Below the pieces are notes generated by a model, which worked only from the letters and a program-made list of their open reading frames with translations, made no database searches and was not told the origin of the DNA. The position numbers and the translations under genes are program-made. Of a stretch of 64,000 nt of DNA, positions 629 to 47,743 are shown in pieces (within the stretch, counting starts at the first letter, position 1; every line of letters starts with the position of its first letter). This stretch comes from Minisyncoccota bacterium (GTDB lineage: Bacteria > Patescibacteriota > Minisyncoccia > Phycocordibacterales > VMEP01). The stretch is from positions 99,833 through 163,832 of the forward strand of contig JBAZUR010000001.1 of the NCBI GenBank assembly GCA_041661305.1, read 5' to 3'.

Positions 629-2149
629 TTACTTGTTTCCTTTTAGGAATTTAGCAAATTGATCAGCCAATCCTTCCTGTGCGTGAGATTTGATTTGTTT
701 GCGAGCAAAAGCGGTTTTGGTAAACTCAAGCCACTTTGCAGACGGTTTGCTTCCTTCTTTTGTTGATATTTCTACGATATCGGCGTTCTTAAGTTTTGTG
801 TTAAGTGCTACCAATTTTCCGTTGACCTTTGCGCCAGAAACATGGTTTCCAACATCAGAATGGATAGCATACGCAAAATCAATTGGCGACGATTCTTCTG
901 GAAGTTCAATAACATCACCTTGTGGAGTAAACACGAAAACTCGGTTTTTGAAAAAATCCATTTTTAAGTGCTCCAAAAATTCTCCGCTTTTAGAAACATT
1001 TTTTTGCCATTCGGTTATTTCTTGAATCCACTCAAGTTTTTTATTTACGTTTTCCTCTTTTGGCTTACTTTTCTTTTTGCCAACTTCTTTATATCCCAAA
1101 TGTGAGGCGATACCGAACTCTGCTTCCTCGTGCATTTCTTTTGTTCGTATTTGTATTTCAATTATTCCGCCGTCGCCAGAAAAAACAGTAGTGTGAATGC
1201 TTTGATAGCCGTTTGGTTTTGGAAGAGCGATATAATCTTTAATTCTTCCGGGGAGCGGACGCCATTTTTTGTGGATAATTCCAAGTACTCGATAACAATC
1301 TTCGATCGACGGAACAATAATACGCAAGGCGACAAGATCGTATATTTTATCCATATCCATATCATGACGCTTCAACTTTAAGTACAAGCTCCAGAGATGT
1401 TTTATGCGGGAGTCAGTTTTAAAACTTTTTACCCCATTTTCAGCAAGCTCTTTTCGAAGGGAACGTTTTATTTTTTCAGCTTCCAGTTCACCTGCAGTTT
1501 CCCTCTCTTTTAGAAGTTTTTTTACTTGTTCAAATTCTTTTGGGTAGGCGAACTCAAAAGAATAATCTTCGAGCTCTCCTTGAATTCGTCCGATACCAAG
1601 GCGGTTCGCAATTGGCGCATATATTTCAAGTGTCTCTAGTGCTATGCGCTTTCTTTTTGCCTCAGGTACATGTCTCAAGGTGCTCACGTTATGAAGGCGG
1701 TCTGCAAGTTTAATAACGATAACGCGTGCGTCTTGGCCAGTGGCGATGAAGAATTTACGCAAACTTTCTACGTGACGCTCAAGACCGCGATACTTAAGCT
1801 TTCCGAGTTTGGTGACTCCTTTTACGAGGAAGGAAATTTCGGGACCGAACTCTTTTAATATTTCTTCGTCTGAGATGTTTGAGTCCTCAACGGTGTCGTG
1901 AAGAAGTCCGGCGGCAATAGTTTTGGCGTCCATGTGTAGACGGGCCAAATTCTTAGCAACCTCAACAACGTGAGATTCAAAATATGGCTCACCTGAAAAA
2001 CGTTTTTGATCCCCATGTGCTTTTTTTGCAAACGAATAAGCCCTTTCGACAAGAGCTTCATTTTCTTTAGTTTTCTTGACCATCAGGTCGGTAATATCTT
2101 TCGCAGAGACCATTAAATCAATACTAGAACTTAACTTGGCTTTCTGCAA
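629..2149 (-). CDS. rel: Bifunctional (p)ppGpp synthetase/hydrolase, short RelA/SpoT homolog with HD, synthetase and TGS domains and no ACT domain
   Basis: HD motif LLHDTVEDS, RelA/SpoT synthetase core, C-terminal TGS-like segment; 506 aa. Confidence 0.85.
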   Translation of the reverse strand: MQKAKLSSSIDLMVSAKDITDLMVKKTKENEALVERAYSFAKKAHGDQKRFSGEPYFESHVVEVAKNLARLHMDAKTIAAGLLHDTVEDSNISDEEILKEFGPEISFLVKGVTKLGKLKYRGLERHVESLRKFFIATGQDARVIVIKLADRLHNVSTLRHVPEAKRKRIALETLEIYAPIANRLGIGRIQGELEDYSFEFAYPKEFEQVKKLLKERETAGELEAEKIKRSLRKELAENGVKSFKTDSRIKHLWSLYLKLKRHDMDMDKIYDLVALRIIVPSIEDCYRVLGIIHKKWRPLPGRIKDYIALPKPNGYQSIHTTVFSGDGGIIEIQIRTKEMHEEAEFGIASHLGYKEVGKKKSKPKEENVNKKLEWIQEITEWQKNVSKSGEFLEHLKMDFFKNRVFVFTPQGDVIELPEESSPIDFAYAIHSDVGNHVSGAKVNGKLVALNTKLKNADIVEISTKEGSKPSAKWLEFTKTAFARKQIKSHAQEGLADQFAKFLKGNK

Positions 2150-2275
2150 ATAGTATTTTTACTTTCCCTTTTTAAAAACACGATAAAATTCTGCTGAATT
2201 TTTCTATACTCGCGCTCGTCGCGCTCCGTAATGTTTTTAAAAAGGAAAAATTGGGGTTTAGATAAAAGAGGCTAT

Positions 2276-4477
2276 TTACTCGATTTTTTTCTTACCGATT
2301 TTATGTGGATTGTGATTTGGACAAACTTTACTAGAACAGCGTTCGGGGATGGTCTTTGTGCCCTCCATCATGAGGGAGTCGCAAAGTTTACAAAGTTTTC
2401 CAGTTGGGCGCGCCTTGATAGCGTTTTTACAAGAAGGATAATCTGAGCAGGAAAAGAAAACACCAAAGCGCCCACGCCTTTCAACCATTTCACCTTTCTT
2501 ACAAGCAGGGCAGGTAACACCAGTTTTACCTTTGGCCTCCTCCTCGGCACTCTTTTTAATAAACTTACATTTAGGATAGTTTGCACAGGCAATAAATTTT
2601 CCATAACGCCCTTCGCGTTCAATCAATTTTCCTTTTAGACACAAAGGGCAATCCTCGCCAGTTTCTTTTGGTCCTTCTAGTTCTGTTCCGTCTAGTTTTC
2701 TTGCACCGACACAATCGGGAAATTTGGAACAAGAAAGGAATTTGCCACTGCGGCTTAGTTTGATGACCATCGAGCTGTCACATTTTGGACAGCGGATATT
2801 TTCATCAGCTTCGCCGAGGTTTGTTAGCTTGGCGATTTTGTCTTTTGATTTAACGTCTTTAGAGAAAGGCTTGTAGAAATCGCGCAAAGTTTTTTCATAG
2901 TCTCTTTTGCCTTCGGCGATTTGGTCGAGCTTATCTTCCATTTCGGCGGTAAACGAGTCGCTAATATAATTTTCAAAATTTTGCTCAAGGAAACTACTAA
3001 CAACCTCGCCAACATCTGTACCACGAAGAGAGCGCCCTTCTTTTTCCACGTACTCACGCTCCAAAATTGTTTTTATAATCGCAGCATAAGTTGAAGGCCG
3101 GCCGATACCGCGTTTTTCAAGTTCTTTAATAAGACCAGCTTCTGTGTAGCGATTTGGTGGTTCAGTTTGCTTTCCTTCTTCTTCAAGTGAAACAAGTGTT
3201 AATGTTTCGCCAACTTCAGTCAAAGGTAATTCAACATCATCTTCCCGTGAATCTTTGTCTGCCTCTAGCCAACCTAAAAATAGGATTCTGTGACCAGTCG
3301 CAGTGAAGTCTGGAATCTCACCATCCTTTATGTTTGCTGTTATTTTTGTACGCAACATTGTTGCGTCGGCCATTTGAGATGCGACAGTGCGTTGCCAAAT
3401 TAAGCGATAAAGCTTTTTCTCAGCATCGTTTGAGCCACGTTCTTCAAACGAAGCGTTTGTTGGACGGATTGCCTCGTGTGCCTCTTGGGCGCTTTTACTC
3501 TTAGTCTTAAAAACACGAGGTACAACATATTTTTCTCCAAATCTTTTACCAACCATAGTAATGATTTGCTCCTGCGCTTCCTTGGAGAGGTTTGGGCTAT
3601 CTGTACGCATGTAGGTAATATGTCCAGCTTCATATAGGCGTTGTGCGAGCGACATCGTTCTTGATGGAGCAAGACCAAGACGTGAACTTGCGGCCTGCTG
3701 AAGAGTCGAAGTGATGAATGGTGGGCGAGGAGCTCGCGAAGTTTCGCTTTCATCAAGTTTTTTAACAAACCATTCACCTTTCTTACCTAAGGTAAGAATT
3801 TTTTTAACTTCCTTTTCGTCGCGCGGTTCTTCGACGCAAGTAAGCAGAAGTGGAGATTTCTTTTTTGTTTTTGTTTCAGCTCTTATAACCCAATATTGCT
3901 CAGGGATAAAAGCACGGATTTCACGCTCTCGCTCAATCACGATTCGTAGTGCTGGTGATTGCACGCGTCCAGCCGAAAGACCGTAACGAACTTTTTTCCA
4001 AATAAGACCAGAGAGATCGTATCCGAAAAGTCTGTCCAAAACTCGACGTGCTTCTTGAGCCTTTCGTAAATCAGTATCAATATCACGTGGGTGCTTAAGC
4101 GCCTCCTTCACAGCACTTTCGGTAATCTCGTTGAAGACGATTCTTTTAATTGGAATTTTTTTCTTTAGAGATGGAAGTAATATTTCCTTCACGTGCCACG
4201 CGATAGCTTCTCCTTCACGATCCGGGTCGGATGCGAGAATTATTTCAGTTGATTTTTTAGCCTCTTCTTGAAGTTCTGCGACAACCTTTTCTTTTCCTTT
4301 AGAAATTTCATAACGTGGAACAAACCCGCCTTCAATATCAATGGCGGTTTTATTACTCTTTGGCAAATCGCGAACATGGCCAACGCTCGCCATAACAACG
4401 AATTCCTTTCCCACATATTTGGAAATTGTTTTCGATTTGGCGGGTGATTCAACTATAAGAAGTTTTGTCATTGCCAT
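2276..4477 (-). CDS. topA: DNA topoisomerase I
   Basis: TOPRIM N-terminus LLIVESPAKSKTISKY; multiple C-terminal C4 zinc ribbons; 733 aa. Confidence 0.9.
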   Translation of the reverse strand: MAMTKLLIVESPAKSKTISKYVGKEFVVMASVGHVRDLPKSNKTAIDIEGGFVPRYEISKGKEKVVAELQEEAKKSTEIILASDPDREGEAIAWHVKEILLPSLKKKIPIKRIVFNEITESAVKEALKHPRDIDTDLRKAQEARRVLDRLFGYDLSGLIWKKVRYGLSAGRVQSPALRIVIEREREIRAFIPEQYWVIRAETKTKKKSPLLLTCVEEPRDEKEVKKILTLGKKGEWFVKKLDESETSRAPRPPFITSTLQQAASSRLGLAPSRTMSLAQRLYEAGHITYMRTDSPNLSKEAQEQIITMVGKRFGEKYVVPRVFKTKSKSAQEAHEAIRPTNASFEERGSNDAEKKLYRLIWQRTVASQMADATMLRTKITANIKDGEIPDFTATGHRILFLGWLEADKDSREDDVELPLTEVGETLTLVSLEEEGKQTEPPNRYTEAGLIKELEKRGIGRPSTYAAIIKTILEREYVEKEGRSLRGTDVGEVVSSFLEQNFENYISDSFTAEMEDKLDQIAEGKRDYEKTLRDFYKPFSKDVKSKDKIAKLTNLGEADENIRCPKCDSSMVIKLSRSGKFLSCSKFPDCVGARKLDGTELEGPKETGEDCPLCLKGKLIEREGRYGKFIACANYPKCKFIKKSAEEEAKGKTGVTCPACKKGEMVERRGRFGVFFSCSDYPSCKNAIKARPTGKLCKLCDSLMMEGTKTIPERCSSKVCPNHNPHKIGKKKIE

Positions 4478-10484: not shown

Positions 10485-10547
10485 GTTTTGATATCTTGTG
10501 GTAGCATTTTCCCGGGAATGTTCCCGTAAAACACAAGAAGGATAGTG

Positions 10548-11039
10548 ATGCAAAATCGCACAATAGTAACGGTGTCATCGACGCTGGTTTTCGATCTCGA
10601 GAAGAAGATCGAGGCGTATCTGAAGTCGCACGAGTGGCGTCGCCTGATTCACCCGCAGTTGGGTGATGATTTCCTTGTCACTCTCTGGAGCGAAGGAAAT
10701 GTCCTCGGTGGCCTCGGCAAAGACGGCTTCGTCGAAATCGAGCGCAACAAGATTCCGGGGAAAAAGAACATCACCCGGGCTGTCTCGACCAGGAAGGCGG
10801 TGGAAAACTGTCTGAATGGAACCATTCGCGTTCGCGCTCTCGAAACGCACGAGCTTGTCGAAGTGGTCCAGGGCTGGGCTCTGCTGTCGATTCCCGATGC
10901 GGTGAAGGCGAAGGTCATCAACCACCGCACTGGCGAAGCCAACAACAAGGCGAAGCAGTTGAAGTTGCGTTTCCAGGGCAAGTCCGGCATGGTGCCAGGG
11001 CACGCTTCGATGGAAATCACGGGCCAATCGGCAAGTTGA
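10548..11039 (+). CDS. Hypothetical protein, GC-rich cassette C (about 163 aa)
   Basis: AAGGA SD; GC about 57%; no family recognised. Confidence 0.45.
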   Translation: MQNRTIVTVSSTLVFDLEKKIEAYLKSHEWRRLIHPQLGDDFLVTLWSEGNVLGGLGKDGFVEIERNKIPGKKNITRAVSTRKAVENCLNGTIRVRALETHELVEVVQGWALLSIPDAVKAKVINHRTGEANNKAKQLKLRFQGKSGMVPGHASMEITGQSAS

Positions 11040-11143
11040 TCGGCACCTGTAGACGGCCAATCGGCCTAGTTCAACGGCTTGCGCACAGAAACGTTTTTAG
11101 TTAGTATGTGCCCTGCCGTTCAACCAGAAGAGGAGAAGCACCG

Positions 11144-11338
11144 ATGCATCAACAAGGTTCAGGTTCATCACGCAGTTTTGCAGCCCGACGCGCGAATTAC
11201 TTTGCGGGACAGGGCACGCAAGCACAGCCGATGTCGGGGGGAACAGGGGTCGCCGCAAATGATCCCAAGGCCACTTCCGCCGAAGAAGAAATCGTCGTCG
11301 ACCCGAAAGAGTCGCCGGCAAAGCACCAAAAGCAGTAA
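11144..11338 (+). CDS. Hypothetical small low-complexity protein, GC-rich cassette D (about 64 aa)
   Basis: GAGGAG SD 8 nt upstream of internal ATG; G/S/A/Q-rich, predicted disordered. Confidence 0.35.
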   Translation: MHQQGSGSSRSFAARRANYFAGQGTQAQPMSGGTGVAANDPKATSAEEEIVVDPKESPAKHQKQ

Positions 11339-11437
11339 GTCGGCCACGGCCGATTAACAGGTCCGCAAATCGTCAATCGACGGGGAGCGGGCCTTTTTCA
11401 TTTGGCGAGCTGAACTGATATAATCATTTTTACGAGA

Positions 11438-28803: not shown

Positions 28804-28831
28804 TTGACACCTATTTTAAGTCGTGTAATAT
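28804..28831 (+). promoter_or_regulatory. Near-consensus sigma-70 promoter TTGACA-N16-TAATAT driving cassette E
   Basis: TTGACA at 28804-28809, TAATAT at 28826-28831. Confidence 0.6.
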
Positions 28832-28943
28832 AGCCCAATCGACCTTTTTGGGGTCGATTTCATTTGTCCCACGTGGTTCAAGTGGATGCTCTTTAAAACC
28901 GTTTCTCGTTCAAAAACCCATAAATCTTTTGGAGATTCATCCC

Positions 28944-29279
28944 ATGACTCAGCAATTCAACCAATCGAAACGCAAAGGCCCCTTTGTTCCCAGCAAGATT
29001 TCCGTCATCCTCGCTGGAACGAACATCGTCGGCATGATCGACCGCTCGGCTCTGGCCAAGGACGGCTGGAAGAAGCATTCGGGGAAGGCCCCCGTCGCCG
29101 GCGTGGAAGTGCATTCGCTGGAAAGCCAGAAGATCGACGGTACCGATTCGATCGCGATCAAGGGCAAGGGCGGCTTCATGACGGCAACGAATGGCGAACT
29201 CGAGTGCTTCTGCGCCGACCACCTGACCGGCCTCGGCTACGAAATCATGCCGCCGGGTGGCACCAAGGCCTCGACCTGA
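28944..29279 (+). CDS. Hypothetical protein, GC-rich cassette E (111 aa)
   Basis: GGAGA SD 9 nt upstream of ATG; GC about 58%; no family recognised. Confidence 0.45.
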   Translation: MTQQFNQSKRKGPFVPSKISVILAGTNIVGMIDRSALAKDGWKKHSGKAPVAGVEVHSLESQKIDGTDSIAIKGKGGFMTATNGELECFCADHLTGLGYEIMPPGGTKAST

Positions 29280-29299
29280 ACGACAACGGCAACAACAAC

Positions 29300-29356
29300 C
29301 GCCGATAGTAATATCGGCACCATACAAGGGCGTCTCCTCCGGGAGCGCCTTTTTTC
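29300..29356 (+). terminator. Two hairpins (GCCGATA..TATCGGC, then GGCGTCTCC..GGAGCGCC + T6) after cassette E
   Basis: Second hairpin followed by TTTTTTC. Confidence 0.65.
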
Positions 29357-30384: not shown

Positions 30385-30501
30385 GCCATATTTGATGGTT
30401 GGTTTGACATACGTTGTTTTTATTGTAGGGTGTAGGGGGTAGTTTTAACGTCGCGTCACTTTATTGTGTCGCTCGATGCACCTTACACGAGGAGGCGAAA
30501 G

Positions 30502-31047
30502 ATGAAGAAGAATAGAAGCGAAATTCTTGCGGGTGCCCGCGAGGCCTTCTTCTATGCGATGTTGCATGGTTGGGTGGCGGGCGGGGACCACAAGAAAGTG
30601 GTCAGAGTTCCTGGAAGTTTTGACAGCAAGGAGGTCTCTTATAGCGCCGGGCTTTTGTACAAAAGGAAGTGGTTTCTTGTTGTTGATCGCTACTGCGTTT
30701 CGGGCGCGGGAAAGTCTGCTGGCACAACAACAATTTGGCTCAGTCACGACCCGGTTTGGTTCATGAGCTACGGCGGTGCTTATCTGAAGGAGGACATCCC
30801 TTTCCTAAAGAATGCCCTTACTCGCGTTTATTCTGAGAAGCAGTTTTTCGGAGGACGTGGGCCGACGAGCCTTGCTATCCCGGCACATCACGTCAACGGT
30901 GGTGTTCTGGTTTACGCGAATGAAGTTGAGAAGGATAGCACCTTCGAAAAATTTCGCGGAAAAGAAGCAATCATCGGCCCATCGAAGGACGGCGGTTCTC
31001 CAGAATTTCGTGGTCACCACGATTACTGGGGGATGTCGCTGATTTGA
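30502..31047 (+). CDS. Hypothetical protein, GC-rich cassette F (181 aa)
   Basis: GAGGAGG SD 6 nt upstream of ATG; TTGACA at 30404; GC about 55%; no family recognised. Confidence 0.45.
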   Translation: MKKNRSEILAGAREAFFYAMLHGWVAGGDHKKVVRVPGSFDSKEVSYSAGLLYKRKWFLVVDRYCVSGAGKSAGTTTIWLSHDPVWFMSYGGAYLKEDIPFLKNALTRVYSEKQFFGGRGPTSLAIPAHHVNGGVLVYANEVEKDSTFEKFRGKEAIIGPSKDGGSPEFRGHHDYWGMSLI

Positions 31048-31083
31048 TGGCGCTATCGTACCTTAGTTTTGTTTTACTCAATT

Positions 31084-31113
31084 GCGTCCCGATAACCTCG
31101 GGACGCTTTTTTT
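31084..31113 (+). terminator. Intrinsic terminator GCGTCCCGA-loop-TCGGGACGC + T7
   Basis: Perfect 9 bp stem followed by TTTTTTT. Confidence 0.8.
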
Positions 31114-38365: not shown

Positions 38366-38728
38366 ATGAGCGAAAAACTTTCCGGTGGATTTGAACAAAA
38401 AAGCGATCTTGAAGAGGCGGCATACGACGCCCGATTAAGAAGAGATGTTGTTTTGCCGAAAGAGGGAACTGGAGCTTATGAGTCTTTGGAAAAAACTTGT
38501 AAGGCTTACTCAAGCGCGGTTGCCCAAGAGATGATTGCACATAGCCCAAAATTTTTTGAGACAAGTGGAAAAACAAGAAGAGCTCTGCACGCAGAGCTCT
38601 GTATAAAACTGTATGGGACGTCCTGGCAGGAAACCTCCCGAGACGATACTGATGCTGCTAGACGTTTTGCGCACTATGTTGCAGGGCGCCCGTCATTTGC
38701 CGAGGATGATTTTGGTGGAAGCCACTAG
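38366..38728 (+). CDS. Hypothetical protein (120 aa)
   Basis: ORF with TAAAAATAAAAAT -10-like upstream; no family recognised. Confidence 0.4.
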   Translation: MSEKLSGGFEQKSDLEEAAYDARLRRDVVLPKEGTGAYESLEKTCKAYSSAVAQEMIAHSPKFFETSGKTRRALHAELCIKLYGTSWQETSRDDTDAARRFAHYVAGRPSFAEDDFGGSH

Positions 38729-38967
38729 CACTCCACCTTTTCGCCGACGTACTGGAACTTCTTGCCCTCGACCGTGACAACGGTCTTGAAAGTGCCGTCG
38801 CCCTGATCAGCGTTGAGCTGGCAGGTATCGTAATTGGCTGAGCACAAGAGGAAACGCAGTTCTTCAAGCTCAATCCAGTAGCTTTTCTTGCTACCGCTCT
38901 CGTTGATACGATTGCGGAGCTTTTCAAGCAGTTTTGCCAACTTTTTCTTGTCACCCGTCGTCGCCAT
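38725..38967 (-). CDS. Hypothetical small protein, GC-rich cassette I (80 aa), convergent with preceding gene
   Basis: GAGGAGG SD 7 nt upstream on minus strand; TTGACA (39033-39038, minus) promoter-like element. Confidence 0.4.
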   Translation of the reverse strand: MATTGDKKKLAKLLEKLRNRINESGSKKSYWIELEELRFLLCSANYDTCQLNADQGDGTFKTVVTVEGKKFQYVGEKVEC

Positions 38968-39098
38968 TTTTTGCCTCCTCAAAAAGATCACGATAAATAA
39001 CCTTATGAAGGATATAACACATATCAATGATTGTCAATATGGTTGAAGTTCGCGGGCCTTTAGTGGAAAAGCCTATTTAATTAAGATAAAATTAACAA

Positions 39099-39886: not shown

Positions 39887-40396
39887 ATGGAAGACCATTT
39901 AAACGATATTGAAAATATGTTTCTTGGAGCGTACAACCTACACGCTGACTCTATTTTTCGTTTTTGTTATTTTAAAACAAGCGATAGAGAAATAGCGAAA
40001 GACATTGCACAAGATGTTTTTATGAAAACTTGGGAATATCTGGCTCAAGGTGGAGAAGTTCAAAATATGAAAGCATATTTATATAAAGTGGCCCATAACG
40101 CGGTAATTGATTTTTGGCGAAAAAGTAAATCAGTTCCCGAAAGCGACCTACCACTAGGTTTTTTTGAAAACATGGAGGCGAAAGAAAATACCGAGTTGCA
40201 AGCAGAATACTCTATCTTCCTTTCTGTTTTACAAAAGCTTTCAAAAGATGACCGTGACTTGATTACGATGAGGTACGTTGAAGACATGAGCCCAAGGGAA
40301 ATTGCGTATATTTTGAACGAGAAGGAAAATACAATATCAGTGAGGATTAACCGTGCGGTAGCTCGTTTGCGGAATATTGCGGGTGGTAAGGAATAA
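39887..40396 (+). CDS. ECF-type RNA polymerase sigma-70 factor
   Basis: Region 2 DIAQDVFMKTWEYL; region 4 SPREIAYILNEKENTISVRINRAVARLR. Confidence 0.8.
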   Translation: MEDHLNDIENMFLGAYNLHADSIFRFCYFKTSDREIAKDIAQDVFMKTWEYLAQGGEVQNMKAYLYKVAHNAVIDFWRKSKSVPESDLPLGFFENMEAKENTELQAEYSIFLSVLQKLSKDDRDLITMRYVEDMSPREIAYILNEKENTISVRINRAVARLRNIAGGKE

Positions 40397-40400
40397 AAAC

Positions 40401-41648
40401 ATGGATACAAATTTTGAAGAAAAATTAAAAAAATTAAAGGAAATTTCTCTCTCAGAAAGCGAAAAGGCTCTTATTCATGAAAGGTTGATATCTTATATTG
40501 ATAGCAACCCTATTAATTTAGTAAAATCAGATGTAAGAAATGGCGCTGAGGAGCGTCTTAATAGCGAGGGTAGTTTGTTAGACGGTTTTTCATTAGTAAC
40601 CAGCTTATTAGTTAATCAATTAAAAAATATGCCAACATTAATTATTGCACTTATATTAGCTCTCTCAGGAGGGACATCGGTTGTAGCAGAGAATGCGTTG
40701 CCAGGTGACGCACTTTATCCAGTTAAAATATCTTTAAATGAACCAGTTGTCGGGTTGTTTTCTGTATCACAAGAGGCGAAAACAGCTTGGCAGGAGAGAC
40801 TCACAGAGCGCAGATTACAAGAAGTAGATAAACTTGTTGCTAAGGGTGATTTTGATCAGGAAAAAAGAAATGATCTTGAATCAAGATTAAATAATCAGAT
40901 TGAGAAATTCGCTTCAAGCGCAAACGAGCTTTCTAAGAAAGAGGGGGCCAGTTCGTCTGAATTAGCAGTTCGTCTTGAAGCTGCATTGATGGCCCACCAA
41001 GATGTTCTTAAGGCGCTTTCTGAAAATAAAAATGTTGCGACAAGCACAAGAGAGCAAATTGCAACAATACTTTCTTCATTGAAAAATAATGAAAATGTCG
41101 TTAAGGATCATCGCGAAAAAATAGATTCTAAACTTGGAAAAGATATTTCTAAGAGTGACGAAGAAAATAATAAGGCTAGCACAACAAAAGAAAGTGCTCT
41201 TGGAAAACAAGGAGCAGCGGAAAATGTTCTTGATTCTGCAAAAAGAGCTTACTTGAGAGTTAAGGCAGAGCTTTCAGTAGAAACTATTATTGAAGTCGAC
41301 AAGTTCTTTGCTGAGGCAAATACCGCCCTTGTGGAAGGTAAGGCCAAAATAGTAACAGGAGAGTTTGCTGATGCTAGAGATAGTTTCCACAAAGTTATTA
41401 AATTAGCAAACGAAGGGAGGGTCACTGCTCTTAAAAATGCCATCAGAAATGATATTGAAGACGATATGGATAAGAGAGGAGATAATGATAAAAAAGGAGA
41501 AAAGAAAGATGATTGGAATAGAGGAAATAACGCATCATCCACAAGTATTAGGGGCGATGAAAGAGGGCGAAGTGATGACGAAAGAGATAGCAGGAATGGC
41601 ACAAGTACTTCTTCTCGTGACGACGACGAAGATGACGACGATAGGTAG
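40401..41648 (+). CDS. DUF5667-like membrane/coiled-coil protein with acidic low-complexity tail; candidate anti-sigma partner
   Basis: Directly downstream of the ECF sigma; TM + ALPGDALYPVK motif; C-terminal RDDDEDDDDR. Confidence 0.5.
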   Translation: MDTNFEEKLKKLKEISLSESEKALIHERLISYIDSNPINLVKSDVRNGAEERLNSEGSLLDGFSLVTSLLVNQLKNMPTLIIALILALSGGTSVVAENALPGDALYPVKISLNEPVVGLFSVSQEAKTAWQERLTERRLQEVDKLVAKGDFDQEKRNDLESRLNNQIEKFASSANELSKKEGASSSELAVRLEAALMAHQDVLKALSENKNVATSTREQIATILSSLKNNENVVKDHREKIDSKLGKDISKSDEENNKASTTKESALGKQGAAENVLDSAKRAYLRVKAELSVETIIEVDKFFAEANTALVEGKAKIVTGEFADARDSFHKVIKLANEGRVTALKNAIRNDIEDDMDKRGDNDKKGEKKDDWNRGNNASSTSIRGDERGRSDDERDSRNGTSTSSRDDDEDDDDR

Positions 41649-42148: not shown

Positions 42149-42577
42149 ATGTCGCTTCCAGATATTGTTTTTCCGCTACATATTTCATCACTTATATTTT
42201 CGGTAATAGGAATTTTATTGGCTGACCACAAGGCTCTTAGGTGGTTCTTGGGGAAGGAGCCAACACTTAATAGAACGATACTTTTAAAATATCACCACCA
42301 TGTACTTGCTGGTTTGTCCCTGATGATTATAACTGGAGTTACTCTTTTTTGGTCAATGCGAGAATACCTGCTTGCGTCAAATGTTTTTTACTTAAAAATG
42401 TTTTTTGTTTCAATCCTTATTGTTAATAGTTTTTTTATAGGAAGGTTGATGAATGTGGCGGTTGTAAAAACTTACGCTGAGCTTAATTTTAAAGAAAGGT
42501 TGCCACTTATGATTAGTGGCATGGCTTCCACGTTAGGTTGGTTAGGGGCATTTATTTCAGCTTTTTTCTTGGTGTAA
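42149..42577 (+). CDS. Integral membrane protein, hypothetical
   Basis: 4 TM, 142 aa. Confidence 0.45.
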   Translation: MSLPDIVFPLHISSLIFSVIGILLADHKALRWFLGKEPTLNRTILLKYHHHVLAGLSLMIITGVTLFWSMREYLLASNVFYLKMFFVSILIVNSFFIGRLMNVAVVKTYAELNFKERLPLMISGMASTLGWLGAFISAFFLV

Positions 42578-42627
42578 CCAAACATAAACCAAAAGAAATG
42601 ATGTAGATACGGTGTTTTGAGGTGCCC

Positions 42628-42655
42628 TTGACAAAAAGTTAATTATAGGTATCAT
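42628..42655 (+). promoter_or_regulatory. Consensus-like promoter TTGACA-N16-TATCAT for cassette G
   Basis: TTGACAAAAAGT shared with cassette H promoter. Confidence 0.55.
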
Positions 42656-42717
42656 TTGGTATGGAATGTCTCGGGGGTCCCCGAAACAACGTAGTATCAT
42701 TAAAAGAGGAGAAGTCC

Positions 42718-43128
42718 ATGAAAAAGCTTCTGAGTGTTTTGTTTGCCTCGCTTTTCGCCCTCGTTTTCTTCGCGCCGTCGGCCTTCGCTGACCCCGGGAA
42801 GGGGAAGACGATGCTCGCCAACGCCAATGAAAGCAACGAGCCCGGGCAGGTCATCGCCGACGCGATGTGGGTGGCCGGCGGGGAAGACTATCAGGTCGCC
42901 GTCATCATTCTCGCCAAGAAGTACAACTCGAAGATGGACAAGAACTGCCGCGTCAAGAACTTCGACGTCGGGCTGGCGTCCCAGAACTACCGCTTCGTTC
43001 CGTCCGTCAACAAGGCCGTGCGTGACAAGATGATCCTGAAGCAAGTGGCCACGATGGGTTGCGAGATGAGCCCGTACATCCACAAGGAAGCCAAGACCGC
43101 CGCCATCCAGAAGATCTGGCGCATGTAA
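42718..43128 (+). CDS. Secreted hypothetical protein, GC-rich cassette G (136 aa, signal peptide)
   Basis: AGGAGA SD; signal peptide MKKLLSVLFASLFALVFFAPSAFA/DP; GC about 58%. Confidence 0.5.
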   Translation: MKKLLSVLFASLFALVFFAPSAFADPGKGKTMLANANESNEPGQVIADAMWVAGGEDYQVAVIILAKKYNSKMDKNCRVKNFDVGLASQNYRFVPSVNKAVRDKMILKQVATMGCEMSPYIHKEAKTAAIQKIWRM

Positions 43129-43157
43129 CCGACCGGCGTCGCCAGCAAGAAGAAACA

Positions 43158-43197
43158 GGGGGAGCACGAAAGTGTCTCCCCCTATTTTATTTTTTTT
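43158..43197 (+). terminator. Intrinsic terminator GGGGGAG-loop-CTCCCCC + TATTTTATTTTTTTT
   Basis: Strong hairpin plus long U-run. Confidence 0.8.
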
Positions 43198-43247
43198 AAG
43201 GAGCAATATTTGGTCAGGTGGTAGTTAGTATTTATTTTTATGTTACC

Positions 43248-43280
43248 ATTGACAAAAAGTGTAATTTATGAATTAATTAC
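43248..43280 (+). promoter_or_regulatory. Promoter-like element TTGACAAAAAGT... for cassette H
   Basis: Same -35 + A-tract as at 42628. Confidence 0.45.
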
Positions 43281-43340
43281 AATAGATTTGTGTTTTAACA
43301 AACTTGTTTTTTGAGTAAAATGATTTTTTAGGAGGGTGCC

Positions 43341-43943
43341 ATGAAAAAGCTATTTTTCTGTTTTCTTCTCACTTCTTTCTGTTCGGTTGTTTCTGCTGTC
43401 GAGATGAGGCCATTTCTCTTGGAGAATTACGGCTGGACCATCGACCTTGGCAACAAAGAAAAGAGCTTCTTCGGTTTTTCTTGGAACATTAACTGTCCCA
43501 AAAACGGCCAGATTTTTCCCAAGGAAGGAGTTAACGTCTTTCGTTTTCCGGTATGTGTTCAGAAAGATCGAACTTTTTGGACCGTTATTCTCTGGAGGAC
43601 AAACATGGTGGCACCGGAAGCAATCGAGAAGACGGTGTATAACGCCATGTCTGATGGGCTTGGTTACGGAAAGATTCTTTGTCGCGAGGAACTCGTGTCG
43701 TCTTTTATCAACGAGAGAGGGGTTGTGCGCGACTGTGCAGTCCCACTTCAGCACGGAACGTTCTATGTCTCCTTCTATCATTTCGATATTCTGATGCCGG
43801 CCGGTGGTTCGTTTGTCGACCAGAACGGGGAAAAGGAAAAAACTCTCGGCTTCACCATCTGGGTCCAAAATGCCGGAAACATCGACAGTGGCGTGAAGGA
43901 TAAGTTACGGGAGTTGATCTCGGCCATCAAGGGGAAGGAGTGA
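43341..43943 (+). CDS. Secreted hypothetical protein, cassette H (200 aa, signal peptide)
   Basis: AGGAGG SD 7 nt upstream; signal peptide MKKLFFCFLLTSFCSVVSA; GC about 47%. Confidence 0.5.
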   Translation: MKKLFFCFLLTSFCSVVSAVEMRPFLLENYGWTIDLGNKEKSFFGFSWNINCPKNGQIFPKEGVNVFRFPVCVQKDRTFWTVILWRTNMVAPEAIEKTVYNAMSDGLGYGKILCREELVSSFINERGVVRDCAVPLQHGTFYVSFYHFDILMPAGGSFVDQNGEKEKTLGFTIWVQNAGNIDSGVKDKLRELISAIKGKE

Positions 43944-43963
43944 AGATGTTCTGTTGTTTCAAT

Positions 43964-43998
43964 GCCACCACAGGGAAACCTAGGTGGCATTTTGTTTT
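43964..43998 (+). terminator. Intrinsic terminator GCCACC-loop-GGTGGC + ATTTTGTTTTATTT
   Basis: Hairpin plus U-run. Confidence 0.7.
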
Positions 43999-44027
43999 AT
44001 TTATGTTGATGCGATATTGTGTAATAA

Positions 44028-44909
44028 ATGAATTTTAATAAAGTTTTCCAAAGTATTTTTTTGTTTGTTAAAAAAGTTGCAAGACCCCTGTTTGCTTTGT
44101 CCTTTGTTTTATTTATATTTTTTGGTTTTTGGTATGCCACGGTAAGGCCAACCTATAACCACAAGTATATTTCTATGTATCAAATATTACCTGAAGTTAG
44201 TTTTAGTGGTGATATTGTTACGATACATAACATAAGGAATTTTTCATATATAACCGAGGATGATTTTGAAAAAAATTATTACACCGCTACTTTTGATTTA
44301 AATAAGATCAAATCCGTTGATTATATTTTAGTCCCATTCAGCGACAATAAATTAAAGGCTCATACAATGCTTTCTTTTGTTTTTGAGGATGGTACAAGCT
44401 TCACGCTTTCTCCAGAGGGAAGGAGAGAAAAAGGGGAGCAGTACTCACTTTTTAATGCAACAATTAGGCGACTTGAACTTGCATATTTGATAACTAGTGA
44501 AAATGATGCTTTAACCTTGCGGGCCGTTGCGCGAAATAATTCCGTCTATCTTTACCCGCTCGTTTTAACAAGTGAAAGTAGGAAGACGCTTGCTTTAGAT
44601 ATGCTGGGTCGTTCAAAAGAATTATTCTCCAGTCCGACATGGTATAGTCTGTTTAGCGATGCATGTGCGCTCAACGTTGTTCGTCACATACAAAAATCAG
44701 TACAGAGCGATGTGCCATTGTTTAATTTCAAAATTTTTGTTTCTAGTTTTTCGGATTCATATCTTTACGACAATAATCTAATTGCAACGAGTACTAGATT
44801 TGAAAAAATGAAGCAAGACGCACTTATTAGTGAAAAGATTAGACGTTACGCTGACATGGATGATTTTTCAAGAAAAATTCGCGAAGTAGAATCAGAAGGC
44901 GCTAATTAA
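44028..44909 (+). CDS. DUF4105-like (Lnb N-terminal domain) membrane-anchored protein
   Basis: N-terminal TM; IRNFSY...DYILVPF...MLSFVFEDG pattern. Confidence 0.4.
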   Translation: MNFNKVFQSIFLFVKKVARPLFALSFVLFIFFGFWYATVRPTYNHKYISMYQILPEVSFSGDIVTIHNIRNFSYITEDDFEKNYYTATFDLNKIKSVDYILVPFSDNKLKAHTMLSFVFEDGTSFTLSPEGRREKGEQYSLFNATIRRLELAYLITSENDALTLRAVARNNSVYLYPLVLTSESRKTLALDMLGRSKELFSSPTWYSLFSDACALNVVRHIQKSVQSDVPLFNFKIFVSSFSDSYLYDNNLIATSTRFEKMKQDALISEKIRRYADMDDFSRKIREVESEGAN

Positions 44910-44925
44910 TTGTTTTATTTCAAAG

Positions 44926-45588
44926 ATGACATCTTTTTCCCAGAAAATTCTAGAATATTTTGAAAATAATATGAGGCTATGGCTTGATAAAAATTTTTTG
45001 CTATCGGCCATTCTCTCGTTTAGTCTTCTTTATTTGGCAACCATTATTAACTCAATGGCTGGTATCCTTGCGACAGAAAGGGCAAGTAATTATGTTAATG
45101 ATATTGTCCTTAGCAACATTCCTAGAATGGATACGAGCTTCATTCACGGGGAAATCACTGGACTAGTTCGTGACATAACTTTGTTTTTGCTTTTTTTAAC
45201 TCCACGCTACTTGCCGTTTGCGATGAAAACTATGGCTGTATTAACGGTTGTTCGTGCAGGATTTATTAATATGACTAATATTGGTATATACCCTGATTCA
45301 ATTCCGATTAACTCCCTAGCTACTTTTGGCGGGGATTTATTTTTTTCTGGACACGTGGCGACAAGCTACCTGATGTCTCTTGTTTTTTGGGACAGAAAGT
45401 TTTTACGCTACTTTTTCTTATCCACAGCTATAATTTTTGGAATCAGCGCTCTTCTTGGTCACTATCACTATACAATTGATGTTTTTGCAGCTCCGTTTAT
45501 CGCATATGGAGTATTTACTGTGTGCAGTAGGGTTTTTGTAAATGATTTTAATATGCTTAAAACCAGGTTGTTTACAGCGCAAATGTGA
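44926..45588 (+). CDS. PAP2-superfamily membrane protein
   Basis: SGHVATS and LGHYHYTIDV phosphatase motifs 2/3; multi-TM. Confidence 0.5.
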   Translation: MTSFSQKILEYFENNMRLWLDKNFLLSAILSFSLLYLATIINSMAGILATERASNYVNDIVLSNIPRMDTSFIHGEITGLVRDITLFLLFLTPRYLPFAMKTMAVLTVVRAGFINMTNIGIYPDSIPINSLATFGGDLFFSGHVATSYLMSLVFWDRKFLRYFFLSTAIIFGISALLGHYHYTIDVFAAPFIAYGVFTVCSRVFVNDFNMLKTRLFTAQM

Positions 45589-45621
45589 TAATATTATAAG
45601 TATAATATTTTTGTAATTTTT

Positions 45622-46683
45622 ATGGAAAATAAAAAGTCTATAGTAGTAATCATTCTAACTCTTGTTGCGTTGGTCGCCACTGCTGCCGTTGTTTCTTTTT
45701 TGTTTTTCTCTCAACCAGCACTCTTTGATTTTTTTAAAAACGACGTTCCCAAAATAGCCGAAGAGGAAACTCAATCTCAACAACAGGTATTTGGCCACAT
45801 GCTTTTTTCGATGATTCCAGATAACGCATCAATGCCTTTAGGTATTTATTCCTATGATATTTTTACGAGAAAGCTTAGTCGTGTGTTGGTTGACCCTTCT
45901 GCACAGACATCGGATTATAATGCTTATTTTTCACCATCTTTTTCAGACGATGAGAAGATAATGGTGTTTTCGCAAAGTAAAAAAAGTGAGGGTGTTTCCC
46001 AGATATACATGGCATCTCCAGACGGTACTAATTTAAAGCAAATTACTAGAGGGCCAGAAATTTTCAAAAGAGAACCAGTTGTTAGTCCTAACAATAAATT
46101 AATTGCATATATCGTCCAGCGGACTGACGTCAAAGAAGCAGAAGGCGCAGAGCTACCGGAGAGCTGGACGGTTTTTCTGGCAGATTTTGCTGGAAGGGCA
46201 ATTAAAGTATCAAATGGAACTAACCCACTATTTTCCCCAGACGGAGAAAAACTTTTGGTTTTAAAGAACGATGGTGTTCATCTTTTTGATATTAAGGATA
46301 CTGAGGAGATAAAGGAAATAGGCCTTGTTTTAGTGACAGCAGGAGGAAGGGCGTCTCAGACAATGAAACTTTCTTTGTCGCGCGACAGAAATATGCTTGC
46401 CTGGTCTTCTCCTAGTAAGAATAATCTCATGGTCTATAAAATTACTTCGTGGGATACGTTTTCCGTCACTCCTTTTAAGTCTATTCCAATAAAAGCATAT
46501 TGGTCAGTTTTTTCTCCGGATGGAACTCATTTGGGAATACAAGAGATTAGACTGTCCCCTAAAACCGGTAATGAGTATATTGTTATTGTTGCGTATGAGC
46601 TGAAGACATCAACTTTGGTTGATGTTGTAAAGTTGAATAAATATGCAAATGAGTATTTTTGGTTTGGTGGTTGGGTGAAATAA
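45622..46683 (+). CDS. TolB-like PD40 beta-propeller repeat protein, N-terminal TM
   Basis: Repeated F/YSPDG-like PD40 signatures. Confidence 0.5.
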   Translation: MENKKSIVVIILTLVALVATAAVVSFLFFSQPALFDFFKNDVPKIAEEETQSQQQVFGHMLFSMIPDNASMPLGIYSYDIFTRKLSRVLVDPSAQTSDYNAYFSPSFSDDEKIMVFSQSKKSEGVSQIYMASPDGTNLKQITRGPEIFKREPVVSPNNKLIAYIVQRTDVKEAEGAELPESWTVFLADFAGRAIKVSNGTNPLFSPDGEKLLVLKNDGVHLFDIKDTEEIKEIGLVLVTAGGRASQTMKLSLSRDRNMLAWSSPSKNNLMVYKITSWDTFSVTPFKSIPIKAYWSVFSPDGTHLGIQEIRLSPKTGNEYIVIVAYELKTSTLVDVVKLNKYANEYFWFGGWVK

Positions 46684-46705
46684 TAAAGTTTTTAATTAAT
46701 TTTTT

Positions 46706-47743
46706 ATGGTAAATAAACTAAAAAAAGATATATTGTCACTAGTTTTCTTTTTAGGGGTTTTAGCTTTTTTTAATTTTTTTGTGCCAGTTTCTTTGTTGCC
46801 AAAAGGAGTTTTCTACAATATAGCTTTTGGGTCTTCTGGTTCAGCGGCTGCGTCTGCTTCATGTTCTGCCGATGCGGGGGCTGCATCCTGTGGTGATGGA
46901 GGAGCTAGCGCTGGTGCAGGTGCTGGGAGTAGTGGCGGTGATGGAGGACCAAGTGTTCTGGGAGGTATTGGTGGTGGCAGTATTTTAGATGGGAGGTTAC
47001 TTTGTAGTGTTTATGCTAACCAATCCTGTTCCTCTTCAAACGTCTGTGGTTCAAACCAGGGAACAATAGGTTGTGACGGAGTCTGCAATGCCATAGCCCC
47101 AGCCGTCCCCAGCAATTACGGCAGAGTCTGTCTCGTCTCAAACGTCTGTGGTCAATCAAACCAGGGAACAATAGGTTGTGATGGATCATGTACTGTTAAA
47201 GAAGCACCAGCACTCCCTTCGGGATACGGAACACCATGTCAGTCATCGGTAAATAGCTGTGGTCAAAAAGCTACAGGAATAATCGGTTGTGTCGGTCTAT
47301 GTACAGCAACCACTCCATCTGATCTAAACTGCACCACCTGTGGTAACAATGTCTGTAACTCAAGTGAAGACAACTCAAACTGCCCATCCGACTGTCCATA
47401 TGTCGCCCCAGCAACACCAACAACACCTGCTGGAGAAGGAGCCCTCTGGACAGAAGCCTCACAGTGGACCCTCACCGCTACACCAAACCCAATATTCGCC
47501 AACACAAGAACAACGGTAAGTTGGTCAGTTAGTGGAGCAACAGGATGTACTCTTGTTGGAGTCGGGGCTGTTAGTGGAAAAGAAACAGATAGATTTGTCG
47601 GTGGCCCTGCTCTTGATTATCAATCAAGTAAACTACAAGAAAACACAGACTTCACCCTAACTTGTTCCAATGCCTACAGTGGTAGAAAAGACTCGAAGAC
47701 TGTTACCGTAAAAGTTCGTACGATTAAGATTAGGGAATTTTAG
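46706..47743 (+). CDS. Secreted Cys-rich repeat protein with Gly/Ser/Ala-rich region
   Basis: Signal/TM N-terminus; three about 35-aa modules CG..NQGTIGCDG.C...P..PS.YG; tandem DNA repeats 47035-47300. Confidence 0.55.
   Translation: MVNKLKKDILSLVFFLGVLAFFNFFVPVSLLPKGVFYNIAFGSSGSAAASASCSADAGAASCGDGGASAGAGAGSSGGDGGPSVLGGIGGGSILDGRLLCSVYANQSCSSSNVCGSNQGTIGCDGVCNAIAPAVPSNYGRVCLVSNVCGQSNQGTIGCDGSCTVKEAPALPSGYGTPCQSSVNSCGQKATGIIGCVGLCTATTPSDLNCTTCGNNVCNSSEDNSNCPSDCPYVAPATPTTPAGEGALWTEASQWTLTATPNPIFANTRTTVSWSVSGATGCTLVGVGAVSGKETDRFVGGPALDYQSSKLQENTDFTLTCSNAYSGRKDSKTVTVKVRTIKIREF
47035..47300 (+). repeat. Imperfect tandem repeats (about 105 bp unit) inside the Cys-rich protein gene
   Basis: AACCAGGGAACAATAGGTTGTGA(C/T)GGA recurs at 47051 and 47159. 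Confidence 0.6.

Follow-up and report, generated by a model that had tools for sequence, protein, structure and literature searches.

Two neighbouring orphan genes with selected-looking codon usage may encode abundant envelope proteins of a Parcubacteria-like bacterium

Transcription units of G and H

The DNA studied here is a 64-kb window of contig JBAZUR010000001.1 ("window" meaning the whole stretch that was analysed), AT-rich with a GC content of 39.8%, and our subject is a pair of adjacent plus-strand genes within it, G and H, which are separated by an intergenic gap of 212 nucleotides (nt). Judged from the signals listed in Table 1, each gene would be a separate monocistronic transcription unit with a promoter, a ribosome-binding site (RBS) and an intrinsic terminator of its own. 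A preliminary description of the region had presented the two as independently transcribed neighbours of about 58% and 47% GC with strong Shine-Dalgarno sequences and strong terminators, and all of this agrees with what we found: the GC contents are 57.9% (G) and 47.1% (H), the Shine-Dalgarno sequences are GAGGAG and AGGAGG, and in both genes a GC-rich hairpin stands directly before a U-run, as in intrinsic (Rho-independent) terminators. When a 72-nt segment holding the G terminator was folded, its minimum free energy was −25.8 kcal/mol (z −4.2) and none of 200 shuffled sequences was as stable. The U-run after this hairpin is UAUUUUAUUUUUUUU, and the terminator is kept in the six aligned G-H loci and in L020 (loci fetched for comparison carry L numbers). 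The H terminator has a GC-rich stem of 8 bp (z −2.2), and L004 has an equivalent hairpin 3′ of H. An open reading frame (ORF) running from a longer start at 42661 was rejected as the G gene, as GAGGAG precedes the ATG at 42718 and the stretch upstream of that ATG has indels among orthologues.

The leader sequence of G is conserved among orthologues, but its small hairpin folds weakly (z −1.1) and covariation support for it was not found. No stable structure was predicted for the window copy of the H leader (z +1.7). In the L004 clade (L004 5950-5990, L009 and L010) the H leader contains a GCGG-TAAATT-CCGC hairpin, TTTTT and a second TTGACA box before the Shine-Dalgarno sequence, and at the same place the window clade has GTTT-TAAC-AAAC; the L004-clade leader might be an attenuator with compensatory changes. 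Rfam searches of the whole window at the gathering threshold, and of 42560-44030 at an E-value threshold, returned only two tRNAs and a meaningless RNAIII fragment; the GC-rich G-H stretch is not a known RNA.

Table 1. Features of the window discussed in the text (predicted from sequence; positions in the window)
Feature	Positions	Strand	Description
G promoter	42628-42655	+	−35 TTGACA 42628-42633, 16-nt spacer, −10 TATCAT 42650-42655
G leader	42656-42717	+	conserved GTCTCGGGGGTCCCCGAAAC-AACG element; small hairpin 42671-42684; Shine-Dalgarno sequence
Antisense ORF over G	42700-43206	-	168 aa
G Shine-Dalgarno	42706-42711	+	GAGGAG; sequence reading
G coding sequence	42718-43128	+	136 aa; ORF and family alignment
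G signal peptide	42718-42789	+	24 aa
G intrinsic terminator	43157-43198	+	GGGGGAGCAC-GAAA-GUGUCUCCCCC, then U-run; hairpin 43157-43183
H promoter	43249-43277	+	−35 TTGACA 43249-43254, 17-nt spacer, −10 ATTAAT 43272-43277
H leader	43278-43340	+	conserved TAGATTTGTG element (orthologue alignment); Shine-Dalgarno sequence
H Shine-Dalgarno	43330-43335	+	AGGAGG; sequence reading
H coding sequence	43341-43943	+	200 aa
H signal peptide	43341-43397	+	19 aa
H intrinsic terminator	43962-44002	+	AUGCCACC...GGUGGCAU, then UUUGUUUUAUUU; hairpin 43962-43990
Lnb_N/DUF4105 protein	44028-44909	+	Pfam match
PAP2_C membrane protein	44926-45588	+	Pfam match
PD40 beta-propeller	45622-46683	+	Pfam match
Surface protein p345	46706-47743	+	Gly/Ser/Cys-rich; downstream envelope cluster
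111-aa ORF	28944-29279	+	GC 0.60, GC3 0.79; no signal peptide, no Pfam match; GC-rich hairpin/T-run terminator 3′
DUF5680 protein	30502-31047	+	GC3 0.56; TTGACA box at 30404; strong terminator; GC-rich island 30404-31110
80-aa ORF	38725-38967	-	GC3 0.72; TTGACA box at 39037; GAGGAGG Shine-Dalgarno; no Pfam match

Promoters of G and H

Both predicted promoters combine a TTGACA-like and a TATAAT-like hexamer 16 to 18 nt apart, which is the layout of sigma-70-type promoters. The G promoter matches the consensus at 11 of 12 positions, and the spacer of the H promoter contains TG at 43269-43270 (TGn ahead of the −10 element). These promoters had been described as near-identical and as sharing a 12-mer at 42628 and 43248. 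The regions upstream of G and H are indeed identical at 20 of 21 positions (CCnTTGACAAAAAGT-TAATT), a score equalled by 2 of 2000 shuffles, and the 12-mer TTGACAAAAAGT is shared, although its second copy starts at 43249. There are exactly two copies of it in the window. If one mismatch is allowed, four occurrences are found against 1.5 expected, which is not unusual (10 of 100 shuffles reached four).

The motif recurs elsewhere only in part. TTGACAAAA and the −10 region are kept in all seven (7/7) G orthologue upstream regions; TTGACA and ATG(A/T)ATTA are conserved upstream of H orthologues, the distant ones having a TTGACA or TTGACT box. Across orthologues, the G and H promoters have only TTGACAAAA in common. 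In L020, the closest relative, where the proteins around the locus are 97-100% identical to those of the window, TTGACAAAAAGT is kept at G and replaced by TTGACAAAATCT at H, so that exact identity of the 12-mer is specific to the window and does not reflect a shared operator. Most of the likeness between them is of the kind that strong sigma-70 promoters share anyway.

Two haplotypes exist for the stretch 43194-43420, which spans the G-H spacer, the H promoter and the H signal-peptide codons: the window and L003 have one, L020 and L001 the other. This grouping is at odds with overall relatedness, which indicates a small recombination patch. Of the 28 nucleotides at which H of the window differs from H of L020, 26 lie inside the first 81 nt, and the mature proteins differ by a single residue.

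The G protein

Signal peptides were scored by rule (a basic n-region, an h-region of 7-15 residues, small neutral residues at −3/−1 and no lipobox Cys at +1). By this rule both G and H have type-I signal peptides of the Sec pathway, processed by signal peptidase I (SPase I); the clear Sec signal peptides reported earlier are thereby borne out, with a tripartite layout, AFA and VSA sites and conservation in both families. In G, the signal peptide is MKKLLSVLFASLFALVFFAPSAFA followed by DPGK, that is, MKK, LLSVLFASLFALVFF and AFA before D. Its n-region is basic, its hydrophobic core has a 12-residue Kyte-Doolittle mean of 2.8 and its cleavage site is of the AxA type, and this layout is present in all 24 G-family sequences (24/24).

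Mature G has about 112 residues, an isoelectric point of 9.4 and two Cys. The family alignment shows six invariant residues (C77, C115, W51, Y58, Y69 and M73), and the ratio of nonsynonymous to synonymous divergence (pN/pS) is 0.27-0.61. Pfam, NCBIfam, PDB-sequence profile and fold searches gave no match for G, and no toxin or enzymatic domain was found in it by Pfam, NCBIfam, PDB-sequence or fold comparison. Running Pfam over the full G-family alignment likewise gave no match, and G has no relatives that could be recognised beyond its own family. The AlphaFold2 model of G is helical, with a mean predicted local distance difference test score (pLDDT) of 61. The structure prediction that had been proposed as a check was informative for H, which yielded a predicted fold, but gave for G only this helical model of low confidence.

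Five close homologues of G are known, and a hidden Markov model (HMM) scan of 1.84 billion representative proteins returned only 20, one of which is annotated as Candidatus Paceibacterota. An exact-sequence look-up of the window G gave no record.

The H protein

The signal peptide of H is MKKLFFCFLLTSFCSVVSA followed by VEMR (MKK, LFFCFLLTSFCSVV and VSA before V), with a basic n-region, a hydrophobic core whose 12-residue Kyte-Doolittle mean is 2.3 and a site of the AxA type. The same layout was seen in 16 of 17 aligned H-family sequences; the exception, P0020, starts within the hydrophobic region. Homologues do not share the cysteines of the H signal peptide, and at the cleavage site the family has V/A-S-A followed by V-E; this is not the pattern of a lipoprotein. 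Mature H has 181 residues, with four invariant Cys (C52, C72, C114 and C132); both mature proteins, G and H, carry invariant cysteine pairs. A pN/pS of about 0.1 shows that H is under strong purifying selection, and no sign of an arms race was seen in the mature protein.

H has no match in Pfam or NCBIfam, and like G it remains of unknown family, as had been stated before. Its family profile did not match any PDB sequence at E up to 10. Structure comparison nevertheless assigns the predicted structure of H to the Mog1/PsbP-like alpha/beta sandwiches, a class defined by an alpha-beta-alpha arrangement around a central antiparallel sheet, although none of the 17 family members matched a Pfam family of that fold (DcrB, LpqN, PsbP, DUF1795) at E up to 1. 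Extracytoplasmic proteins with a similar predicted fold are DcrB (6e8a), LpqN (6e5d), Apa (5zxa) and MTC28 (4pws). Their identity to H is only 5-13%, with no relation at the sequence level by Pfam or PDB-sequence search. DcrB is a lipoprotein according to its PDB entry, whereas H has a type-I signal peptide and no conserved lipobox cysteine. H also differs from DcrB-type proteins in its two conserved disulfide pairs and its confinement to Parcubacteria.

One H homologue (P0015) scored 24.2 bits against Cleaved_Adhesin (PF07675; cutoff 21.4), over profile positions 67-161 of 174 only. Five other homologues matched the same region weakly, at 12-15 bits, and the window H did not match at E up to 1. 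The Cleaved_Adhesin domain is a beta jelly-roll and would not fit the alpha/beta sandwich predicted for H.

The H family comprises 23 clusters among 5.8 billion proteins. Named genomes with H are Parcubacteria LiPW_30, a Kaiserbacteria metagenome-assembled genome (MAG) and three MAGs auto-labelled Saccharibacteria. Both families are very small and were seen only in Parcubacteria-like contigs.

Codon usage and synonymous divergence

The GC content at third codon positions (GC3) is 0.87 in G and 0.58 in H, compared with 0.25-0.40 in the surrounding genes. It is 0.76-0.84 in G orthologues, with the clade whose G is 43% identical included (0.77-0.79), and 0.49-0.68 in H orthologues, where it exceeds that of most or all neighbours examined in each lineage. 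In the comparison with L004 the synonymous sites of neighbouring genes are near saturation, with a synonymous divergence (pS) of 0.64-0.71. The GC3 bias persists all the same, whereas a foreign composition left to decay neutrally should by then have disappeared.

Synonymous change in G is 2-2.5 times slower than in flanking genes. Four comparisons with the window gave pS values for G that amount to 0.4-0.8 times those of the genes around it: 0.157 against 0.31-0.49 for L001 (Fisher p 9e-6), 0.233 against 0.34-0.62 for L003 (p 8e-7), 0.30 against 0.43-0.46 for L002 (p 0.02) and 0.53 against 0.64-0.71 for L004 (p 0.006). No reduction relative to neighbours was seen for H.

C-ending codons for Phe, Tyr, Ile and Asn are reportedly a near-universal mark of translational selection. 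The C-ending fraction of these codons is 0.85 in G, 0.52-0.81 in other GC-rich small genes, 0.57 in both H and the type IV pilin, 0.49 in the surface protein p345 and 0.15-0.29 in housekeeping genes. The codons enriched in G, H, the pilin and p345 are therefore the same as in the selected codon bias of highly expressed bacterial genes, and G resembles strongly biased bacterial genes in its reduced synonymous divergence as well. H has the enrichment without the lower pS. There are also differences from known selected bias. The bias covers nearly all codons that end in G or C, GGG and AAG among them, which is extreme for a GC content of 39.8%, and it falls on orphan genes and not on known genes of translation or glycolysis. 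Intergenic DNA of the window contains six perfect TTGACA hexamers, five of which precede GC3-rich genes.

Gene neighbourhood and co-occurrence

Recurrence of G and H was judged by tblastn and family HMMs over all fetched loci. A search for the pair in other genomes had been proposed as a check, and the pair does recur, without being obligate: the window and six other loci (L020, L001, L003, L009, L010 and L004, the last being the same as L008) have G next to H, and each gene also occurs without the other. The G copies of the L004 clade are about 43% identical to the window G. At least five further lineages have H but no G (L005/6, L007/11, L012, L016 and L022), and G-family genes stand without H in L013/14 and L015. 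In L018 no G-like gene is present among the called genes upstream of H, a profile search not having been made there. L002 has kept G with its promoter, leader and terminator, but the downstream genes from H through PD40 are gone, and on the upstream side so are those for cytochrome b5 and the 142-aa membrane protein (L002 5710-6760). What seems to be left of H there is a degraded promoter and some 12 signal-peptide codons (read by eye: GTG ACG AAG AAG CTT CTT CGT TGT TTG).

The envelope cluster downstream of H (44028-47743) is syntenic with H in L001, L003, L004, L009-L012, L016 and L020-L022, and in nearly every lineage examined the constant neighbours of H are these Lnb_N, PAP2, PD40 and surface-protein genes, not G. 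According to PMC12994826, the DUF4105/Lnb domain is a permuted NlpC/P60 acyltransferase whose substrates are lipoproteins. The PAP2 protein is of a lipid phosphatase/transferase type. Because H is constantly accompanied by these genes, it belongs with the envelope module. G is added upstream of H in one subclade only, and we infer that G and H are neighbours by synteny and not an obligate functional pair.

Genes of the p345 surface-protein family flank the H cluster, with a duplicate lying upstream of G in L004 (4421-5293), L008 and L010. Both p345 members of L011 (6691-7914 and 11416-13152) end in ...L(S/A)(G/S)FQEF, a C-terminus that might act as a sorting signal.

At 39887-41648 (+), roughly 1 kb 5′ of G, the gene for an extracytoplasmic function (ECF)-type sigma factor (169 aa) runs into the beginning of a gene for a DUF5667 protein (423 aa, with an acidic low-complexity tail), which from its position we took to be a putative anti-sigma factor. 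The two genes are conserved in L001, L002 and L020, and 3′ of them lie genes for a cytochrome b5-like protein with a membrane anchor and for a membrane protein of 142 aa. We considered the sigma factor and its neighbour as a regulator of G and H and found no support for this, as the G and H promoters are sigma-70-like and not ECF-like.

In L004 (Parcubacteria LiPW_30, the same as L008) nitroreductase, YcaO and tetratricopeptide repeat (TPR) genes lie at 1341-4360, a few genes upstream of G-H, and resemble an azoline-type set for a ribosomally synthesized and post-translationally modified peptide (RiPP). This set is absent from the window. The idea that G is a RiPP precursor was dropped because such genes are absent from the window and G is, by prediction, a folded Sec substrate.

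On 55% GC contigs (L005 1-7657 and L006), genes for a methyltransferase, Replic_Relax and a TrwB/DUF87-like ATPase adjoin an H homologue (48% identity) and its neighbour of 210 aa; this could be a conjugative element carried by some GC-richer organism. The G-family gene of L015 lies near a TrwB-like gene and RadC.

Discussion

We favour, with a probability of roughly 0.55, the explanation that G and H are highly expressed, abundant cell-envelope proteins of an ultra-small, AT-rich Parcubacteria (Paceibacterota)-like bacterium of the candidate phyla radiation (CPR), and not a toxin and its partner. Each protein would be exported by the Sec pathway via its cleavable type-I signal peptide. The codon bias of G and H would reflect selection for efficient translation, and the two genes would rank with the most highly expressed ones of the cell, which would make their products abundant extracytoplasmic proteins; it is the codon bias, together with consensus promoters, strong RBSs and tight terminators, that points to high expression. 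H would most likely be a non-enzymatic binding or scaffold protein of the envelope that serves the adjacent lipid/lipoprotein-modifying and surface-protein genes, and DcrB and LpqN are structurally similar extracytoplasmic proteins with roles like those proposed for H. G would be a small, basic, disulfide-stabilised helical protein, most likely associated with the wall or the cell surface.

Several points weigh against this explanation. Enolase, which is usually well expressed, is unbiased (C-ending fraction 0.26). For glycine, G mostly uses GGG (5/7), rarely a translationally optimal codon, so plain GC-richness and not tRNA matching may be what is maintained. Neither the window nor the AT-rich relatives fetched contain ribosomal-protein genes with which optimal codons could be calibrated; the sole ribosomal-protein gene among the loci is L25, in the 53% GC locus L013. 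High expression of G and H is deduced from sequence signals only, their signal peptides were judged by rule and not by a trained predictor, and confidence in the structural model of G is low (pLDDT 61). In addition, a foreign origin is made possible by the distant G relatives found in 53-55% GC genomes and by the one H homologue found beside a relaxase and a coupling protein.

The GC-richness of G and H might accordingly come from horizontal acquisition, from GC-richer organisms or mobile elements, and say nothing about expression. The GC3 of both genes is far above the genome norm, distant G-family members lie in, and match the composition of, 53-55% GC Paceibacterota-like contigs, and homologues of H and G occur beside Replic_Relax and TrwB-like genes (55% GC contig) and a TrwB-like gene, respectively. 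We nevertheless consider this origin rather unlikely as the whole explanation. Synteny and promoters are conserved and GC3 still stands at 0.77-0.87 (G) and 0.52-0.65 (H) across relatives whose neighbouring genes have reached a pS of 0.64-0.71; the synonymous divergence of G is lower, not higher, than that of its neighbours; and the promoters and leaders of G and H are AT-rich like the host. Moreover, scans of viral contigs with both families gave no match, nor did a tblastn search of plasmids with the G-family member P0030. An ancient transfer followed by selection would be compatible with the explanation that we favour.

The preliminary description had suggested that the two could be an exported effector with a partner protein. 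In the version weighed here, G would be an exported effector, toxin or bacteriocin-like protein and H its secreted partner, chaperone or immunity protein. The seven loci in which G and H are adjacent would fit this suggestion, as would the small, basic and presumably disulfide-bonded nature of G. The predicted fold of H, in addition, resembles those of the Eag/DUF1795 chaperone SciW (6xrb/6xrr), the immunity proteins TplEi (5h7y) and Tsi3 (4luq) of type VI secretion systems (T6SS) and the Tli4_C-domain protein PA3488 (7wdk, PldA complex). However, each family is found without the other in several lineages, L002 has kept G and lost H, which suggests that a genome with G only is viable, and a strong terminator and a separate promoter stand between genes 212 nt apart, so that the two neither strictly co-occur nor appear to be co-transcribed or coupled. 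The constant neighbours of H are envelope genes and not G, and G has no recognisable toxin domain or fold. SciW-type Eag chaperones are cytoplasmic proteins that act on effectors of the T6SS; H, by contrast, carries a signal peptide and is predicted to be secreted. H differs further from T6SS chaperone and immunity proteins in having no T6SS or effector gene nearby and no strictly paired candidate toxin, and its strong purifying selection gives no hint of an arms race in the mature protein. The suggestion is not supported and seems quite improbable.

That the DNA or RNA of G serves a further purpose, through the antisense ORF or a structured RNA, which keeps GC high and slows synonymous change, is hardly credible. 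In its favour, 6 of 7 orthologues have no stop in the codon-aligned antisense frame anywhere along the G coding sequence, and synonymous change in G is suppressed. Yet such a frame is automatically open when the sense strand avoids TTA, CTA and TCA, as a GC3 of at least 0.77 entails, it is interrupted in L010, no promoter or Shine-Dalgarno sequence for it was noticed in the sequence read, and Rfam gave nothing meaningful over 42560-44030. The protein encoded on the sense strand, moreover, has invariant Cys and Trp residues, a signal peptide and a pN/pS below 1. The antisense ORF was accordingly rejected as a gene.

CPR bacteria, including Parcubacteria, are almost wholly uncultivated, and most of their surface proteins are unannotated. 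A simple signature (consensus promoter, strong terminator and selected G/C-ending codons) picks out a few orphan genes that are probably the most abundantly made, and two of the genes bearing it, G and H, would be secreted envelope proteins, one of them (H) tied to the conserved Lnb_N/PAP2/PD40/surface-protein module. This makes G and H concrete targets for proteomics, antibodies and structural work on the CPR cell surface. As a wider and much more tentative idea, orphan genes of AT-rich Parcubacteria that combine selected G/C-ending codons, a perfect TTGACA and a tight terminator could form a class encoding the dominant unannotated surface and cytoplasmic proteins; in the window this class would hold G, H and at least three others (28944-29279, 30502-31047 and 38725-38967 on the minus strand). 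Should the idea hold, G and H would be main parts of the cell surface or of the host-contact apparatus of these uncultivated episymbionts, and the signature would let the abundant CPR proteome be read directly from genome sequence; in a sharper version the two proteins would work jointly where the cell meets its host. The most useful by-product of this work, which reveals no new kind of system, is the codon-bias signature.

Other GC3-rich genes of the window

The 111-aa ORF is part of a self-contained unit at 28804-29345 (+) whose architecture is like that of G, with a promoter of TTGACA, 16 nt and TAATAT and a leader hairpin (ATCGACC...GGTCGAT). For the 80-aa ORF on the minus strand, pS relative to L001 is 0.24, less than half that of its neighbours (0.54-0.59), which is the same trend as in G. 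A further GC-rich island (GC 0.56) lies at 10545-11357 (+); it had no Rfam match, and the larger of its two candidate ORFs (164 and 92 aa) had no match in Pfam, against which the 92-aa ORF was not scanned. This island has no TTGACA box.

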